NCBI GenBank assembly: GCA_964514965.1
Contig: CAZETV010000002.1
Span: 120,001 to 152,000 of the forward strand
Length of the DNA stretch: 32,000 bases
DNA from: Candidatus Hadarchaeota archaeon
Lineage (GTDB): Archaea; Hadarchaeota; Hadarchaeia; Hadarchaeales; Hadarchaeaceae
Direction: 5' to 3'
Positions 344 to 22,926 of the stretch are shown here, one piece after another. Under the pieces are notes generated by a model. That model saw only the letters and a program-made list of their open reading frames with translations. It did not search any database and had not been told where the DNA came from. The position numbers and the translations under genes were made by a program. Numbering within the stretch: the stretch's first letter is position 1; each line of letters begins with the position of its first letter.

Positions 344-555
344 GGTCCCGTAGGGGTTCGGGGGGTTCAAACCCTACCCCCGCACCAACAAAAATCGTGC
401 AAAAATCCTGCCCAATTTTTGCCTGAAAATTGCACGAAAGATTTAAACGCCGCACCACAAAAATTACGCAAAAATCCTGCTCGAATCCTGCCCGGTTCTT
501 GCGAAAAATCGTTTGGGAGATTTGAACGGGGGCTTGAACCTATCCGGGCCCGCCA
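344..555. repeat. Composite ~215-nt repeat R1, built from three tRNA-3'-end-like modules (344-387, ~434-457, 515-555; each ends ...CCGCACCA or ...CCCGCCA on the plus strand) separated by two hairpin-forming spacers
   Basis: Aligns by eye along its whole length with the reverse complement of 10214-10430, with one ~10-nt indel. Contains stems TCGTGCAA(395-402)/TTGCACGA(430-437) and CGCAA(467-471)/TTGCG(499-503). Confidence 0.8.
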
Positions 556-600
556 TATGTATACCGTAAGTTTTGCCCAATTCTAGCGGTACGAGTAAAC

Positions 601-9413: not shown

Positions 9414-9578
9414 AGATGTGAAGGTATAAGCGCCCAGTTATAGCTGGAGTAATTATTGTTACTTTGCCATTATCCGTGTGTGATTAGCGTTGCACTGCAG
9501 CGAAAATCTTTCTTTTCCTTTCAGTACTTCTCCAGAGATTTTAATTCCAAAAAATTAGGATAAGTTAACAGCGAAGTC

Positions 9579-9591
9579 AATGCTGTGTAAG
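9579..9591. repeat. 13-nt direct repeat AATGCTGTGTAAG, left copy, flanking the MazG-like gene
   Basis: Identical 13-mer recurs at 9987-9999. Both are preceded by AGT(C). Confidence 0.6.
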
Positions 9592-9632
9592 ATATTCGAA
9601 CCAGCATTCGAACCCGCTATTTAATGAACTTG

Positions 9633-9952
9633 TTAATCACTCTCTGAACCTGCACTACCTTTCTTCAGTCTGGTTTCATATTTTTTTAGGACTAATTCTA
9701 ATGCTTCTTCTAAATCAACACCAAAAGAATTAGCTATTGTAATAAGTGAATATAGTAAATCCCCCAGTTCAGTTTTTAACTGTTCTCTATACTCAAGTGG
9801 TTTTCTACCATAGTCACTCATTTTAAGAATTTCTTTTGCAACCTCCCCAAGTTCGGATAGAGTATCTAAGACCCTGTGTTCCGGGGGGATTCCAAACCTT
9901 TTTTTTGACAAAACTCCTTTATTTTCCTTTGAAGATGTTTTAAATCGCTCAT
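9633..9952 (-). pseudogene. MazG-like nucleoside triphosphate pyrophosphohydrolase, split by a frame change inside an A8 tract (T8 at 9899-9906 on plus)
   Basis: ATG at 9952 opens MSDLKHLQRKIKEFCQKK, a typical MazG N-terminus, which stops after 28 codons. The -1 frame continues RFGIPPEHRVLDTLSELGEVAKE...ELGDLLYSLITIANSFGVDLEEAL (MazG EExxE/D helices) to 9633. One extra A, or a -1 slip, restores a protein of about 106 aa. Confidence 0.65.
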
Positions 9953-9986
9953 AACCACACCTATTTTATTAACCTATTTAATAAGT

Positions 9987-9999
9987 AATGCTGTGTAAG
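9987..9999. repeat. 13-nt direct repeat AATGCTGTGTAAG, right copy
   Basis: Identical to 9579-9591. Confidence 0.6.
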
Positions 10000-10027
10000 G
10001 GCTCTGTTGAAAGTCTATATTTTTAAC

Positions 10028-10152
10028 CCGCCGGGGAGTTGGACTCCCGTGTGGCGGGGGGGAAACACAGTAGTGGTGTGTTTTCCATGAGTAGCAGCAT
10101 CTTGAGGAAAATAAAGCGTTTGCTTGTCAGGAACCGCGTGCCGCGGTTCCTG
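10028..10152. other. GC-rich cluster of three strong hairpins within AT-rich DNA (possible small structured RNA or recombination/termination element)
   Basis: H1 10028-10057: CCGCC-G-GGGAGT-TGG-ACTCCC-GTGT-GGCGG. H2 10061-10086: GGAAACACA/TGTGTTT(T)CC. H3 10128-10152: perfect 11-bp stem CAGGAACCGCG-TGC-CGCGGTTCCTG. Confidence 0.35.
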
Positions 10153-10213
10153 CACGCGATGGGTCCGAAGACTTACGAGTTCGCGGATCACGCACTCGCG
10201 CTGCTCTTACGCG

Positions 10214-10430
10214 TGGTGCGGGGGAGTAGGTTCAAGCTCTCGTTCAAATCTCCCAAAAGATCTTTCGCAAGAATCGAGCAGGTTTCGAGCAGGATTCATG
10301 CGTAGTTTTTGCGGTGTAGAGTTCAAATCTTTCGTGCAATTTTTGGGCAAGAATCGGGCAAGATCGAGGCAGGATTTTTGCATGGATTTTGGTGGTGCGG
10401 TATTAAGGGTTTGAACCAAGATTTGTACCC
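10214..10430. repeat. Composite ~215-nt repeat R2 (inverted copy of R1) with three modules beginning TGGTGCGG, GCGGTG and TGGTGCGG
   Basis: Modules at 10214-10254, ~10311-10337 and 10393-10430. Spacers form stems CGCA(10266-10269)/TGCG(10299-10302) and CGTGCAA(10333-10339)/TTGCATG(10378-10384). Collinear with the reverse complement of 344-555. Confidence 0.8.
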
Positions 10431-10479
10431 ACACTTTTAATTTTTGATCCTTGATAAATGGGAAGTCACAGGTTTTTGA

Positions 10480-12984
10480 TTACAAAGGCGACCAAGTATC
10501 TTCAGCTAATCGTTTCCAATCATTAGGACCAAGAGCGATTAAAGTCGCAAGATCTGCTAGTGCTTTCCCACGAATTATGTACAGTGTTGGTTTTTTCAGA
10601 GCGTTTGGCGTGATGTAAATAAATGTATTATTCCCTTCTTCCAAGGCTAGTTTTGTTTCAGCTTTCGTAAGCGTAACAGGATATTCTTTGCTTCTGCCTT
10701 TTGCCTCTATTTTCTTCGTGGTCCCATCCGGCATCCGTGATGGGATGTCGAATCCAGCCCCTCTTGCTTCGGATTCATGTAACTCGTGAGAATCAATTCC
10801 GTATTTTTCTTTTTCATAACAAAGTGCAGTTAATATACCAATTCTCCACGCAATTCTATCTTCATCAAAATTTTTCCCTAATTCCAGCTCTTCAAAGAAC
10901 TTACGCCAAGTCAAAAGTCTATCGTGGGTTTCGTTCTTGATAAATACAGGATCTAAAAACTCAAAATCTCCATCAACAACTCCCTTTCTATCAAGTATCC
11001 CCCTTTCCAGCAATAATTCAATGTTCTTTTCCGGTTCAAATTCTTTTGAAAACCAGACTTTCTTTGGGTCGATCCATTTGCCAGTTTTCGTTTTAACTAA
11101 AATTCCAGAAAGATCATTGGAACCTACAAACCCATTCTCCCACCATCCTTTCAGCAATTTGACATTATTCACTTTTTCATCATCAGGAATACGCGTATCT
11201 GCCAATTTCTTTAGTAATTCAGGGACGCGATCTCTTCTCATATGAGTTTCTAACACATCCCTACCCAATTCTTGAGCTCCAAGCCTTCTGAGGTACTTGA
11301 GAATTAACTCGTCCCTTAAGTCTGGATGCAAGAATCTGAATTTACTTGGAAAGTATTCCGCTCCACGATTTTCAATCTCGGCATTTTCTGGAATCCAAAT
11401 ATCGGAAGCCCGACAAGTTTGCTGCTCTTGATCTAGAAAGCTTGTAATACTTAGATAATCGTACTTTATCTGAGATTGGTAGCCTTCAGAATATCCTAAA
11501 AATTCTTCAGCTAACGCTCGCAGACATTGCCTATAGTATTTCAACCATTCGTCCCTGAAAGTAGCCTTAAAACGTTCAAAATCAAACGGATAACTTCGGA
11601 AAAAATCACGGATTAACTGGAAGTTTGATATCCCTAACAATTCGTGAGGTCGGCAATCGGGATGAAGAATTTTTTTGCCCGAGAGCTTTTCGATTGATTC
11701 TTCCCCTAAAAACCTCACAACACTCTCAGATACTTGAATGGTTTCATTTGCTCTGACGAAAGATCCATCATGTCGTACAAAGTGATCTCCATTTCTAATT
11801 TCGCTTTCAATGGGATTTAACAAGTATCTATCAATCATATAAGGTTTGGCCCGTGTAATGAGAACATTTGTGTAAGAAAATTTCCATCTCTCGTGAATTT
11901 TGAATATCTTGATAATCTTTTGAATCAGGATATTTACGGCCTCTTCCAATAACCATCTATTCCAAGAGGTCTCATACTTAATTTCTTCTCTGCCAGGAGC
12001 TGTTAAAAAGTCTGCATGCAACATAAATGGGATTCCTCCGTATTCAACTTCTCGAGTAGGGACGTGGCTAAATATACCAAACGCTATAGTTCCCGAAGGT
12101 TCCGTTGTAAGGTCCATTTGCTCATTTAATCTAAAAGCGATTCCAATCTCTCGCTTTTCTACGCGACTTCTCCATTCCTTGGTGACGGGATCAGCTCTAA
12201 TATCCTCAGGAACTTGAAGCGCATGTCGAAAAACAAGCCATTTTGTAATATCGATTTTTCCATTGTAATTGAATTCAAGTTGGTGGATCTCGTAATTGTC
12301 TCTTTTTTCTAAGATTGATTTTCTTATGATTTTCCTCTTTCCATCCCACGCTAGCTGGATCTCATTCAAATGACGCAAAAACAAAAGTGTGCGTGGATGC
12401 AGATTCTCAAATTCTTCTCGCAACTTTTGAATTCCTTCCTGTTTTAAAGGGATTGAAAAGATTGTTCCTTGAGTTTTTATTCTTTCGAAGAATTCTCTTG
12501 GCAGTTCATCAATCCAAATAGGCGTAATCTGCCAAGGAATTTTCGTAGGCTCGGCCCAATGATTCTTGTCGAATTTAAATCGGTAAGGAGTTGAGTAAAT
12601 GTGCGGACATGAAGAGATTAAGAAAATGGACTTAAATCCGACTCCTAGATACCCCAAGTACTCACGCGGATCTTTTCGGGATCTGCCTACTGAACATATA
12701 GGTTCCACATCGTCTGGGGAGAAAGAACCACCATTATTGTAAATTTTTAAAGTGGTTTCTTCCAAAGTTGCATCTATTTCTGTAGCTCCTGCATCTTCAG
12801 CATTTTGGAAGAATTCAAGCAAGAAATGACCAATTCTCGGAAAAGTAGTTTCTACTATCCACATTGCTCCGGCTAGCGCTTCTAAAACGCGTCCGTCCTT
12901 TGTGTAACTTTCCCTGATTTTATCGATATGTTCTTTGGCTTGTCTTTCATCATTCGCTAAAATTTCTTCTCCCATTAAAATCAT
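10480..12984 (-). CDS. Sacsin/MORC-type GHKL (Bergerat-fold) ATPase fused to a C-terminal DUF3883 / PD-(D/E)xK-like domain
   Basis: 834 aa. N-box LLEFFQNAEDAGAT, G1-like KIYNNGGSF and G2 GYLGVGFKSIF within the first ~130 aa. C-terminus ARGAGFDIPSRMPDGTTKKIEAKGRSK...NTFIYITP matches the G-x-G-[YF]-D-I...IE-x-K-G pattern of DUF3883 (NOV C-terminal) domains. AT-rich codon usage. Confidence 0.7.
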   Translation of the reverse strand: MILMGEEILANDERQAKEHIDKIRESYTKDGRVLEALAGAMWIVETTFPRIGHFLLEFFQNAEDAGATEIDATLEETTLKIYNNGGSFSPDDVEPICSVGRSRKDPREYLGYLGVGFKSIFLISSCPHIYSTPYRFKFDKNHWAEPTKIPWQITPIWIDELPREFFERIKTQGTIFSIPLKQEGIQKLREEFENLHPRTLLFLRHLNEIQLAWDGKRKIIRKSILEKRDNYEIHQLEFNYNGKIDITKWLVFRHALQVPEDIRADPVTKEWRSRVEKREIGIAFRLNEQMDLTTEPSGTIAFGIFSHVPTREVEYGGIPFMLHADFLTAPGREEIKYETSWNRWLLEEAVNILIQKIIKIFKIHERWKFSYTNVLITRAKPYMIDRYLLNPIESEIRNGDHFVRHDGSFVRANETIQVSESVVRFLGEESIEKLSGKKILHPDCRPHELLGISNFQLIRDFFRSYPFDFERFKATFRDEWLKYYRQCLRALAEEFLGYSEGYQSQIKYDYLSITSFLDQEQQTCRASDIWIPENAEIENRGAEYFPSKFRFLHPDLRDELILKYLRRLGAQELGRDVLETHMRRDRVPELLKKLADTRIPDDEKVNNVKLLKGWWENGFVGSNDLSGILVKTKTGKWIDPKKVWFSKEFEPEKNIELLLERGILDRKGVVDGDFEFLDPVFIKNETHDRLLTWRKFFEELELGKNFDEDRIAWRIGILTALCYEKEKYGIDSHELHESEARGAGFDIPSRMPDGTTKKIEAKGRSKEYPVTLTKAETKLALEEGNNTFIYITPNALKKPTLYIIRGKALADLATLIALGPNDWKRLAEDTWSPL

Positions 12985-13000
12985 GCCTATTACATGTAAA

Positions 13001-13672
13001 CTATTTACCTGTTCTTATTTCTCCTGCTTCCATTTCTTTTAACGTTCCATTTATCACATCTATCATCTCTTCGGGAACCGTATGTGTGGGATATCTTCTG
13101 CTCCCTGTTTTCCAATATATTCGATAGGATCTAGTTATCGCTAAATCTCTCGGCGCTGGGTACGTTCCTCTCATATCCCTTATCTTTGCTAGTATGTCGA
13201 TCCATGTTGCACCTCCATAAGCCTTATCCCACTTGCTCTCTTTATGTAGTTCAATAATAGCCTTCAAAAAATGATATGCTCTATTTTTAGTGTCCTTTAA
13301 TGCTCCCAAAACCTCTTTGCGTATATCACCCTGCCTATCCTCTAGCCTGAAAATGCCTTTCTTAATATCGAAATAGTAGTGCTTACCTATAAAACAATCT
13401 ATCTCTGTGTATTCAGGCAGGCCGACCTCATTCAGAGCAGAAATAAACTTTTCATCGTCTAGTTTCTCTGGATTAGTTAGCTCTTCCAGAGCTTTTTCTT
13501 TCTCTTCAGCTACAAAGTAAGCGTAAGTGTCTTTACTAAACTTATAGTCGAAATCATCAAACCACTTTAACCTGGCTACCTTTCCTAACCTATAAAGCCT
13601 TCTATCATTATAGAAAAATCTTCTCAGCAAAATATTCCTTTCTTTCACTTTAGATTGACTCATGTTACCCAT
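13001..13672 (-). CDS. Hypothetical protein, partner of the GHKL-DUF3883 gene (no recognisable domain)
   Basis: 223-aa ORF ending 16 nt upstream of the 834-aa gene start, same strand. TTTATAA (reverse complement of 13691-13697) lies ~22 nt upstream of the first ATG, so the real start may be the ATG at 13663 on a leaderless or short-leader mRNA. Confidence 0.6.
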   Translation of the reverse strand: MGNMSQSKVKERNILLRRFFYNDRRLYRLGKVARLKWFDDFDYKFSKDTYAYFVAEEKEKALEELTNPEKLDDEKFISALNEVGLPEYTEIDCFIGKHYYFDIKKGIFRLEDRQGDIRKEVLGALKDTKNRAYHFLKAIIELHKESKWDKAYGGATWIDILAKIRDMRGTYPAPRDLAITRSYRIYWKTGSRRYPTHTVPEEMIDVINGTLKEMEAGEIRTGK

Positions 13673-13690
13673 AAATTTTAATGGTTTTCC

Positions 13691-13697
13691 TTATAAA
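13691..13697 (-). promoter_or_regulatory. Putative archaeal TATA box for the 223-aa/834-aa operon
   Basis: Minus-strand TTTATAA preceded by purine-rich AGC, 22-31 nt upstream of the two candidate ATGs. Confidence 0.35.
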
Positions 13698-13804
13698 GCT
13701 TTACCGTATTAGGTCAAGCTTGCTCTTATACGATATAGATAACCAAAAAAACGGTTTCCCGTAAAATCTCCTCAGAAAATGCCTAGGCTACTTAGCAGAA
13801 CCTA

Positions 13805-13848
13805 TGGTGTGAAAGTTGGATTCACACCCTCGTTCATACCCTCACCCC
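13805..13848. repeat. Degenerate copy of the ~42-nt tRNA-3'-end-like module (TGGTGTGAAAG..CTCGTTCATACCCTC), containing an 8-bp hairpin
   Basis: Aligns with 10214-10254 and 15230-15270 (shared TGGTG...GxTTCA...C.CGTT.A.A.C). Hairpin GGTGTGAA-AGTTGGA-TTCACACC at 13806-13828 lies ~80 nt downstream of the 369-aa gene stop. Confidence 0.5.
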
Positions 13849-13908
13849 CCTTGCGGTTACAGGCTGAAGTTGTAGTGGGTTTGGTTAGGTTTCATATCTA
13901 CTCAAGGC

Positions 13909-15009
13909 CTAAATCCACTTTTTGTACTTTAGATAGTAGACGTAAACAGCCACGATCTCGTCAAATACATTCTCAAGATTCTCGAAAAAGAACGGTGTGT
14001 CAGGATCGCAGATGTGTGTAGCATAGTTTCTTAACGCCCAAAGAATGAGAACATTCTTTTCAGGCCTATTGCACTTTAAAGCTTTCCTCACTAGATCATC
14101 GAAATCCTTTGGTGTCTGAGGACTTTTGTTTCTTGGATTTACTTCGTTCTTAAACCAAGTTTCTTTCCCGAATATTGCAGATAATAGTTCGCCTAATGTT
14201 CCAGAAGTCTTTTCATAGTATCTCATCCTTAATTCAATGAATCGACAAAGGCTGATTACTCCGTCAAATAGCCTTAATCTGGTGTAGATGTTATTCCTGT
14301 TCAAATAAATCCCACGATCTTTCTCTTCTTTTAGGAGCACCAGATTTCTATGAACGACCCAAAGTGAGCCCTCTAGCAAAGCGCGTTGCTCTGGAGAATC
14401 GTCAAGTTCCTTAAATAATTCATCAATGTTAACACTATCTTTGAATTCGGTGTTGTATTTGTCGATTGCTTTTTTCATCATAATCCAAGGAGCCTCTCCG
14501 CCAAACTGGCTTATGCCTTGACGATGAGCGCTTTCTGTAAACTGAGTGTATAGTGGATTGTGGAAGATGTTCTTAGTAGGGTCCCCCGCCCATCCTCTAT
14601 CTTCGTGGCAAGCCCAAAGCAGGTAAGCGATGCCTCCGTCAAGGTCTCCTTCGGCTAATGCAGATACACCAAGATTTCCACAAACCATTCCCTTGTTAAG
14701 TGGTTTATTGTTTTTCTTCTCGTATTCGTTAATCGCGTTCAATATTTGCCAATAATACATTTTAGACATGCCTGTGACGTTCTTTTGTAAAAATGGTATG
14801 CCAATATTGTTTGCCCGATTGAAATACTCATTCTTTTTGTCATAGCCTCCTTCTGGCTTTTCATGATCGTATGGTTCCGCCGCTTTCATGTCTTGTTGTA
14901 GATCCATTAATCCCAAAGACACAGCTTTCTCGTATGACTTGAGACAATCAATCGCGAGAGTAATCCCAAGCCTGTAATTGTTCCACCTACCGAACTCTAA
15001 CAGAGACAT
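13909..15009 (-). CDS. Hypothetical helical protein with a C-terminal HEPN-type RNxxxH motif (candidate RNase/abortive-infection effector)
   Basis: ORF 13909-15018 opens with GTG. The ATG at 15009 is preceded by GGTGA 5 nt upstream, so it is the preferred start (366 aa). ...LILWALRNYATHICDPD... gives R-N-x3-H in a predicted helical C-terminal region. No other motif recognised. Confidence 0.55.
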   Translation of the reverse strand: MSLLEFGRWNNYRLGITLAIDCLKSYEKAVSLGLMDLQQDMKAAEPYDHEKPEGGYDKKNEYFNRANNIGIPFLQKNVTGMSKMYYWQILNAINEYEKKNNKPLNKGMVCGNLGVSALAEGDLDGGIAYLLWACHEDRGWAGDPTKNIFHNPLYTQFTESAHRQGISQFGGEAPWIMMKKAIDKYNTEFKDSVNIDELFKELDDSPEQRALLEGSLWVVHRNLVLLKEEKDRGIYLNRNNIYTRLRLFDGVISLCRFIELRMRYYEKTSGTLGELLSAIFGKETWFKNEVNPRNKSPQTPKDFDDLVRKALKCNRPEKNVLILWALRNYATHICDPDTPFFFENLENVFDEIVAVYVYYLKYKKWI

Positions 15010-15229
15010 AAATTTCACCTATCTTTTTAGGTCCAACACCTAAATAGAAGTTGCCTTTCTGTAGGGAATTGTCAGAATCTAACATTGTGTTTAACGCGAT
15101 AATTATTTTTAAGATATGCTTACATGCACCTTCGACTCCAAACTAGTTTCAGAACGCCTTTTCCAGCTTTTTACGGCTCCTTTACGGGAAAACTACGTGA
15201 AAAATGCCCAGATGGCTTCGTGGAATGTA

Positions 15230-15270
15230 TGGTGCGGGGGGTTAGGTTTATGCTACCGTTTAAATCTACC
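15230..15270. repeat. Third direct copy of the ~42-nt tRNA-3'-end-like module (TGGTGCGGGGGGTTAGGTTTATGCTACCGTTTAAATCTACC)
   Basis: Same orientation as, and alignable with, 10214-10254 (TGGTGCGGGGGAGTAGGTTCAAGCTCTCGTTCAAATCTCCC). Confidence 0.65.
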
Positions 15271-15483
15271 GAAACTCGCGATCCACTCATCGCTTATTTA
15301 TAACTTATTTTATAAGATATAGATATTCTGGGCGCTGACTGGCATTAACCCCCAATCAAACGACTCGCACAAGGAAAGCATAGTAGTCGAAGGGTCAATC
15401 CCCATTACTCTTTGCTTTAAGGGTCTAGCTCACGTGGCCGCCACCTATTGGAATTTGCAGCCTCCCGGGCGGCACGCAAAAGG

Positions 15484-15490
15484 CTTTATG
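15484..15490 (+). promoter_or_regulatory. Putative BRE/TATA element of the alba gene
   Basis: GCAAAAGG-CTTTATG lies ~37-55 nt upstream of the candidate ATGs at 15527 and 15542. Confidence 0.3.
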
Positions 15491-15541
15491 CCACCCCACC
15501 AAATTAAGGGCGCCCGACTAAACAAGATGAGGCAGGAAACA

Positions 15542-22798: not shown

Positions 22799-22827
22799 GC
22801 GCCAGCCATTTTTGAGGTATGGTGCGG
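22799..22827. repeat. 29-nt direct repeat, copy overlapping the genuine tRNA-Leu 3' end
   Basis: See 21800-21828. Confidence 0.8.
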
Positions 22828-22926
22828 GGGAAGGGATTTGAACCCTCGAACTCCTAAGAGACCAGCCCCTCAAGCTGGCACCTTTAGTCGGTCGTTAGAC
22901 CTTTGACCTGACTCGGCCACCCCCGC
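22820..22926 (-). tRNA. tRNA-Leu(GAG): tRNA-Leu (GAG), class II, encoded CCA, with a ~19-nt insertion/intron at the D-stem 3' side
   Basis: Reverse complement: GCGGGGG-TG-GCC-GAGTCAGGTCAAA-GG[TCTAACGACCGACTAAAGG]T-G-CCAGC-TTGAGGG-GCTGG-TCTCTTAGGAGTTC-GAGGG-TTCAAAT-CCCTT-CCCCCGC-A-CCA. AAAGGT repeats at both insertion borders. Confidence 0.85.

Follow-up and report, generated by a model that had tools for sequence, protein, structure and literature searches.

Tiamat, whose protein is TmtA, is a single-gene anti-phage system included in PADLOC and DefenseFinder that has been listed among the single-gene PD-(D/E)xK defence systems (bioRxiv 10.1101/2024.10.26.620412), and DUF3883 has been described as a domain with a restriction-endonuclease fold (PMC3710099). 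Diverse bacterial defence operons are preceded by regulators, namely BrxR/CapW, which have a winged helix-turn-helix (wHTH)-WYL-WCX architecture, RptR, and CapK/CapS (PMC9122601, PMC9122588, PMC12255303, PMC13373217), and in Panacea (DUF4065) one antitoxin domain serves dozens of toxins (PMC8832971). Here, we describe a two-gene operon in a 32,000-nucleotide (nt) stretch from a Candidatus Hadarchaeota archaeon (contig CAZETV010000002.1; the whole stretch is hereafter called the window, and all coordinates refer to it), in which a gene for an 834-amino-acid (aa) Tiamat-like GHKL ATPase-nuclease stands directly behind a gene for a 223-aa protein, p223. In our best explanation, to which we assign a probability of roughly 0.55 as a whole, a region of about 6 kb with low G+C content (approximately positions 9500-15500) is a horizontally acquired defence islet with this bicistronic operon as its core, where p223 would be a generic winged-helix regulator or sensor at the head of the operon and the Tiamat-like protein a self-sufficient effector. 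The operon comprises the following features, with both genes taken from a six-frame list of open reading frames (ORFs):

10480-12984, minus strand: ORF of 834 aa, predicted short-form TmtA-like protein with a sacsin-type GHKL ATPase, an Hsp90/MutL-like middle part, a helical region and a C-terminal DUF3883/NOV_C PD-(D/E)xK nuclease
12523-12831, minus strand: GHKL (SACS) ATP-binding core of the 834-aa protein, aa 52-154 (Pfam SACS, E 2e-13)
10573-10818, minus strand: DUF3883/NOV_C domain of the 834-aa protein with a restriction-endonuclease fold, aa 723-804 (Pfam NOV_C, E 1e-7)
12985-13000, minus strand: 16-nt spacer between the p223 gene and the gene for the 834-aa protein, TTTACATGTAATAGGC
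13001-13672, minus strand: ORF of 223 aa (p223, ATG at 13672), member of an unnamed family with a helical N-terminal part, a predicted C-terminal winged helix and the motifs WDKAYGGATW and YKTGSRRYPTHTVPEE
13690-13721, minus strand: p223 promoter with a palindrome that overlaps the TATA box, a candidate operator

With regard to the second gene, for which public gene calls place the start at Met4 and thus give 831 aa, the original prediction made for this stretch had proposed a GHKL ATPase fused to a DUF3883/PD-(D/E)xK module, and this assignment holds. Both Pfam matches, to SACS and to NOV_C, lie above the respective curated cutoffs, the NCBIfam model P_loop_sacsin (sacsin ATP-binding domain) matches with E 5e-18, also above its cutoff, and crystal structures of sacsin SR1 are matched with E 2e-8. 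An alignment of 32 homologues shows that the GHKL residues E57, N61, and D64 of the N box, N83, G85, and G111-K118 are invariant, with G111, G114, G116, and K118 representing the family-invariant residues of the G2 box, and that the same is true for the nuclease triad D746, E760, and K762. The protein thus has the N box, the G1 and G2 boxes, and the Bergerat fold of sacsin-type GHKL proteins, followed by a transducer-like domain. In an AlphaFold model with a predicted local distance difference test score (pLDDT) of 87, approximately the first 340 aa, including a beta-rich part after the GHKL core, fold like the N and M domains of Hsp90, MutL, and MORC, while the C-terminal end shows an alpha/beta pattern compatible with a nuclease core; Foldseek matches to the model include full-length Hsp90, sacsin SR1, MutL/MLH1, and MORC2 (E 2.5e-9 to 1e-5). 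The protein shares sacsin-type Bergerat motifs and these fold matches with the sacsin SRR, NO VEIN, and MORC proteins, as well as the NOV_C domain with plant NO VEIN; the window's family differs from them in being prokaryotic, in standing alone in defence islands, and in having an intact nuclease triad, and would be neither a chaperone nor a chromatin protein.

The same protein is matched by the PADLOC TmtA model PDLC03972 with E 6.5e-91, aa 51-705 aligning to profile positions 41-675 of 1302, and the other eight of the nine PADLOC TmtA models match as well, with E values between 1e-56 and 4e-3. Two statements of the original prediction are overturned by this result, i.e., that the arrangement matches no named defence system and that some 550 aa between the two terminal domains match nothing, as the TmtA profile spans most of this region and the first 340 aa fold as described above. 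With 834 aa, however, the protein falls well short of the TmtA profiles, which have 1063-1782 positions; the best match spans about half of the profile, and the protein lacks the full-length reference TmtA architecture, which we took from the PADLOC profile lengths and one preprint (bioRxiv 10.1101/2024.10.26.620412). Because of this difference in length, we file the 834-aa protein, by sequence comparison, as a member of a short-form TmtA-like subfamily, apart from the tested Tiamat proteins. A database search found 247 homologues, most of which have 735-890 aa and keep the architecture of SACS plus NOV_C; they come from archaea (Methanodesulfokora, Thermoproteota, Nitrososphaerales, Micrarchaeia, and Methanosarcinales) and from bacteria (WOR-3, Atribacteria, and Bacillota). 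In common with Tiamat, the window's protein has a strong profile match, an N-terminal GHKL ATPase, a PD-(D/E)xK domain, and homologues that occur as single genes in defence islands, whereas its length of 834 aa, its archaeal source, and its place in an operon behind another gene set it apart.

The genomic contexts of six TmtA-like homologues (P0002, P0003, P0008, P0105, P0063, and P0039) were read, and a conserved same-strand partner gene is absent from all six, which are defence islands or mobile elements. Their neighbours include an OLD-like ATPase (AAA_15/AAA_21-TOPRIM), a pair containing a Piwi-type prokaryotic Argonaute (pAgo), GmrSD, PIN proteins, and transposases, as well as a serine recombinase accompanied by ImmA/HTH and phage replication genes; the defence role that had been proposed for the window's protein is supported by this context. 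The p223 gene was not found by tblastn near TmtA-like homologues at 12 loci, and the six contexts that were read are likewise empty of it. Homologues thus stand alone, and only this window puts one behind p223. Judging from these homologues, the 834-aa protein would need no partner, and it carries no extra domain relative to them in the 32-homologue alignment. One TmtA-like homologue, on contigs related to Methanodesulfokora (L062:8888-11352), adjoins a Piwi (pAgo) gene that is paired with a Hypoth_Ymh gene and also lies near an OLD-like ATPase, in what is clearly an archaeal defence island.

In the window, the 16-nt spacer TTTACATGTAATAGGC holds no separate TATA box for the gene of the 834-aa protein, which implies co-transcription of both genes; both ORFs and the gap are real, the peptide motifs that the original prediction had quoted are all present in the translation, and the short-gap operon that it had proposed stands. 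The TATA-like element that had been noted ahead of the p223 gene is also there, reading TTTATAAG (minus strand, 13690-13697); it stands 17 nt ahead of the p223 ATG, a distance that implies an mRNA leader that is short or absent. This TATA box is overlapped by a 26-nt palindrome, AAGCTTGACC-TAATAC-GGTAAAGCTT, at 13696-13721.

The 223-aa gene had been called an orphan, which it is not, as more than 100 close homologues exist. A single-sequence search identified 104 clusters and a profile search 143 clusters of p223 homologues, most of them 205-235 aa long and 50-86% identical, with the motifs WDKAYGGATW and YKTGSRRYPTHTVPEE near-invariant in the alignment. Relatives with a named source are few (Methanomethylicota, Thaumarchaeota, Thermoplasmatota, and Iainarchaeum), and they are archaeal wherever the source names the organism. 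A viral origin was considered and rejected, as a scan of 2.9 million viral contigs found no p223 relative. We found no named family that covers p223, as sequence searches of p223 against Pfam, NCBIfam, PADLOC, and PDB gave no match.

Scans of genome and metagenome collections yielded 58 loci with p223 relatives beyond the window, and tblastn of their flanks found a TmtA-like gene at none of the 58; combined with the absence of p223 from all six TmtA-like contexts, this removes the claim that p223 is an obligate small partner of the 834-aa protein. A same-strand gene follows next downstream at 30 loci, at a gap of -50 to +48 nt in 24 of the 30, and clustering of these 30 downstream proteins gave 30 clusters, 24 of which are singletons. 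Genes of the p223 family hence precede at least 20 unrelated gene families at a short gap. These include TIR_2, HEPN, AbiJ_NTD5, nucleotide-cyclase-like, proteasome-like, and TPR proteins, AAA_21/AAA_15 ATPases that resemble AriA, GajA, Old, and AbiLi, several proteins without a family, and an N6_Mtase/HsdM gene that heads a type I restriction-modification (R-M) module, with the HsdS specificity subunit further downstream (L007). Even close relatives of p223 are followed by different genes: P0122 (86% identical) precedes a 611-aa HNH protein, P0126 (72% identical) precedes a 107-aa ORF and an SNF2-NOV_C helicase with DUF1156, and P0128, another close relative, precedes yet other genes. At one locus (L075:6199-11555), the p223 homologue is followed by an SNF2 helicase fused to NOV_C (DUF3883) and then by DUF1156; NOV_C is the nuclease domain also found in the window's effector, here on another ATPase chassis. 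On both sides, the p223 genes are flanked by housekeeping genes as well as by R-M, integrase, and transposase genes. Genes without a Pfam family that directly follow p223 homologues include L013:2066-2833, L026:2461-3189, L028:6877-7659, L053:2452-3672, and L022:1266-1874, the products of the first four having 255, 242, 260, and 406 aa, respectively, and such genes are candidate new archaeal defence genes by association.

Among 1.84 billion representatives, an exhaustive profile search recovered no more than 89 clusters with a p223 domain, many of them longer fusion proteins in which the domain is joined to TIR_2 (P0269, P0275, P0295, P0316, and P0332), to a TIR domain of the CAP12/Pycsar type (P0219, P0242, P0245, and P0247), to AAA+/MCM-like ATPases (P0263 and P0291), to a Ras-like GTPase (P0290), or to FKBP (P0248). 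These distant members keep the wing motif K(T/S)GSxxYP and the helix start IPxEIIP. Given its fusion to TIR, AAA+, and GTPase domains, the p223 domain may have signal sensing as an additional role.

The AlphaFold2 model of p223 (pLDDT 95; predicted template modelling score, pTM, 0.89) has in its C-terminal half a helix at residues 133-144, a short strand, helices at 157-166 and 174-182, and a hairpin at 187-198, an order suggestive of the winged-helix topology (H1-S1-H2-H3-S2-wing-S3); on this model p223 looks like a DNA-binding protein with a C-terminal winged helix. The best fold matches in PDB and among viral structures are all winged-helix regulators; the top 50 listed matches are mostly MarR, ArsR/SmtB, and ORC winged helices, and none of these 50 carries a BrxR, CapW, or WYL label. 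Weak matches include TubR, winged helices of ORC/Cdc6, and SSV1 F-93. The most conserved residues of p223 map to the putative recognition helix and the wing. On the DNA side, the window's 26-nt palindrome is retained together with the TATA box at five other p223 loci (L002, L005, L006, L072, and L075) despite differing downstream genes, while at most others a related, G/C-richer palindrome of the form TACC..CCAC-TTTTNA-GTGG..GGTAAAG abuts the TATA box; in a subset of loci the palindrome is placed downstream of the TATA box, ahead of the start codon. As a generic scan for the best inverted repeat was swamped by AT-rich palindromes, we instead counted specific motifs in 40 non-redundant p223 upstream regions, upstream of 345 other ORFs from the same loci, and in random windows. 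The right arm plus TATA box was present in 42% of the p223 upstream regions as compared to 0.9% of the other ORFs and 0.6% of the random windows, and the core palindrome in 45%, 7%, and 4.4%, respectively. An autoregulating dimeric repressor would require just such a palindrome at the B recognition element (BRE) and TATA box of the gene that encodes it, and binding of p223 to the palindrome is inferred from these sequence patterns.

In the mechanism that we propose, a p223 dimer would bind the palindrome that overlaps the BRE/TATA region and repress the operon, and a signal would release this repression and allow the operon to be expressed. The second gene would supply the effector, a sacsin/Hsp90-type GHKL clamp coupled to the C-terminal DUF3883 PD-(D/E)xK nuclease, in which ATP binding and hydrolysis may license cleavage of foreign DNA, and which would act alone, without a partner. 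p223 would then be a functional analogue of the bacterial BrxR/CapW regulators. As with BrxR/CapW, RptR, and CapK/CapS, a small winged-helix protein (predicted in the case of p223) is the product of the first gene, its promoter carries an inverted repeat, and it is associated with many unrelated defence systems and islands. p223 differs from BrxR/CapW in lacking the WYL ligand-binding and WCX dimerisation domains (no match in Pfam, NCBIfam, or PADLOC) and any sequence similarity, and in having an archaeal promoter architecture, with the palindrome abutting the BRE/TATA region, as well as covalent fusions to TIR, AAA+, and GTPase domains; the likeness would thus be a resemblance in working rather than membership. 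A regulator accounts both for the unrelated partners, including the type I R-M module led by HsdM, and for the absence of an adaptor domain in the window's TmtA-like protein. We therefore consider p223 to be probably a shared regulator or sensor and not a dedicated partner. The broader proposition that p223 is a previously undescribed, portable front-end module with a winged helix, archaeal wherever named, that regulates or triggers at least 20 unrelated immune effectors in trans, from the head of bicistrons, and TIR, AAA+, and GTPase effectors in cis, through fusion, is one to which we give even odds.

The operon lies in a zone in which G+C is 0.34-0.43 across approximately 9500-15500, as compared to approximately 0.45-0.58 in the flanks. 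The low G+C content that had been attributed to a two-gene cassette is thus real, but the zone is broader than the cassette and additionally encloses a 369-aa ORF (p369) and a 92-aa MazG-like ORF. It is bordered by a radical-SAM gene of the CofH type (cofH) on one side and by an Alba gene on the other, and the surrounding genes, i.e., those for Alba, TATA-binding protein (TBP), archaeal RNA polymerase subunit D, and CofH, constitute an archaeal setting. The islet contains no integrase, and a search for structured RNA in it gave no Rfam match above noise. Besides the operon, the following features of the islet and of a family of repeats were recorded:

9633-9911, minus strand: ORF of 92 aa, stand-alone MazG-like nucleotide pyrophosphohydrolase domain protein at the islet edge
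13909-15018, minus strand: ORF of 369 aa (p369, six-frame ORF list) within the low-G+C islet, of no recognisable family
10214-10445, plus strand: composite repeat copy of about 230 nt downstream of the gene for the 834-aa protein, first unit at 10214-10258
approximately 345-560, minus strand: second composite repeat copy, 88% identical over 90 nt
13805-13848, plus strand: diverged solo repeat unit between p369 and p223
15230-15274, plus strand: solo repeat unit upstream of p369, closest to 10214-10258 (80% over 45 nt)

The MazG-like ORF sits in the most AT-rich stretch, with a G+C content of 0.34. For p369, searches of Pfam, NCBIfam, PADLOC, and PDB were all negative; it may be another uncharacterised defence or mobile-element gene. 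Neither p369 nor the MazG-like protein was found by tblastn of the flanks of the other 58 p223 loci; both, like the TmtA-like protein, accompany p223 only on the window's contig, and p369 is not part of a p223 module elsewhere.

Direct repeats around the cassette had been read as att-like. Repeats do exist (for the repeat core, 2 matches were found versus 0.01 expected, and solo units have about 45 nt), but we rejected their reading as an att pair, given that they are 60-80% alike, occur in at least four dispersed copies in both orientations, and have neither an integrase nor an adjacent tRNA. The repeat units begin with TGGTGCGGGGG, which is the reverse complement of the 3' end (CCCCCGCACCA) of a tRNA at 22823-22926; the correspondence is limited to the first 11-14 nt of the units, and Rfam found no tRNA-like structure in the repeats. 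The repeats are thus a dispersed family and may represent either a small non-autonomous repeat or the decayed remains of att sites derived from a tRNA. The tRNA itself, on the minus strand and 104 nt long, presumably contains an intron; it scored 43.7 bits with Rfam and was missed by ARAGORN. A perfect 8-bp hairpin with a 7-nt loop, GGTGTGAA-AGTTGGA-TTCACACC, lies at 13806-13828 on the plus strand, inside the 13805-13848 unit and about 135 nt upstream of the p223 start. At three p223 loci (L016, L011, and L047), the G-rich right arm of the operator plus TATA box (CGGTGGGGGGTAAGCTTTAAAT) is similar to the sequence with which the window's dispersed repeats begin (TGGTGCGGGGGGTTAGGTTTAT); the repeat starts concerned, at 15230-15250 and 10214-10234, are on the opposite strand here, and the resemblance is possibly due to chance.

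Several other explanations for the association of p223 with its downstream genes were weighed against an acquired islet headed by a shared regulator. The most serious of these, which we regard as possible and clearly less probable, is that p223 is a nucleic-acid-sensing subunit that physically activates the neighbouring or fused effector, i.e., that p223 and effector form a true two-component system in which p223 is reused across effectors. Such a subunit would fit the repeated joining of the p223 domain to TIR_2, CAP12-type TIR, AAA+/MCM-like, and Ras-like domains, the translationally coupled spacing of p223 and the downstream gene (-19 to +48 nt), and the extreme conservation of the wing and recognition helix, which looks as if one conserved ligand were bound; yet the partners are unrelated in sequence and have no detectable common adaptor region, they include HsdM, which opens a type I R-M module that has HsdS further downstream (L007), and, compared to homologues that lack p223, the window's TmtA-like protein contains no additional domain. 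That p223 might instead be a hyperpromiscuous type II antitoxin, similar in concept to Panacea, autoregulating via its winged helix and neutralising diverse toxic effectors, appears improbable. The position of the p223 gene upstream in bicistrons that overlap or have short gaps, the candidate palindromic operator at its own promoter, and the many unrelated toxin-like partners (e.g., TIR, HEPN, and HNH) would all be expected of an antitoxin, and Panacea provides the precedent of one conserved small partner, with a single antitoxin domain, that pairs in bicistrons with dozens of unrelated toxic effector genes (PMC8832971). However, p223 shows no similarity to any antitoxin family in Pfam or NCBIfam and no homology to Panacea, with no match to the Pfam DUF4065 model at E values up to 1, its partners include non-toxic genes such as HsdM, a covalent p223-TIR fusion is odd for an antitoxin, and the window's effector has homologues that live without an antitoxin, as seen in the six contexts.

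It is about equally improbable, in our estimate, that the adjacency is functionally meaningless, with p223 having some other role (e.g., replication or partition of a small mobile element, or marking an integration hotspot) while defence genes simply accumulate beside it. The variable flanks on both sides of p223, with integrases, transposases, and R-M genes, and the weak fold matches to TubR, ORC/Cdc6 winged helices, and SSV1 F-93 point in this direction, whereas the directional bias of the variable gene, which in 24 of 30 cases directly follows p223 on the same strand at an operon-like distance, the fusion of the p223 domain to effector domains, and the lack of any p223 match in the 2.9 million viral contigs argue against it. 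The reading put forward in the original prediction, an undescribed system of a GHKL-nuclease fusion with an obligate, dedicated small partner, mobilised between att sites, now seems very unlikely. It could draw on the 16-nt gap, the shared promoter, the low G+C content, and the flanking repeats; against it stand zero co-occurrence beyond the window's contig, the strong TmtA match, and repeats that form a dispersed family of at least four copies without an integrase, and the two outcomes that the prediction had itself set beforehand as counting against it, i.e., a lack of co-occurrence and a match to a described system, are what was found for the two-gene claim.

As a short-form member of Tiamat, a known and mechanistically unexplored system, the effector is of modest value, while showing that archaea and bacteria widely carry a compact TmtA-like form of about 830 aa in which the ATPase and nuclease residues are intact. 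With regard to p223, the control and triggering of archaeal immunity are poorly charted, and p223, as a conserved and readily recognised gene ahead of many unrelated defence genes, is a candidate for a common control element of archaeal defence islands. Its position as a leader gene also provides a guilt-by-association probe for new archaeal defence genes downstream. If p223 does act as a front-end module, it would be an archaeal counterpart of BrxR/CapW or Panacea.

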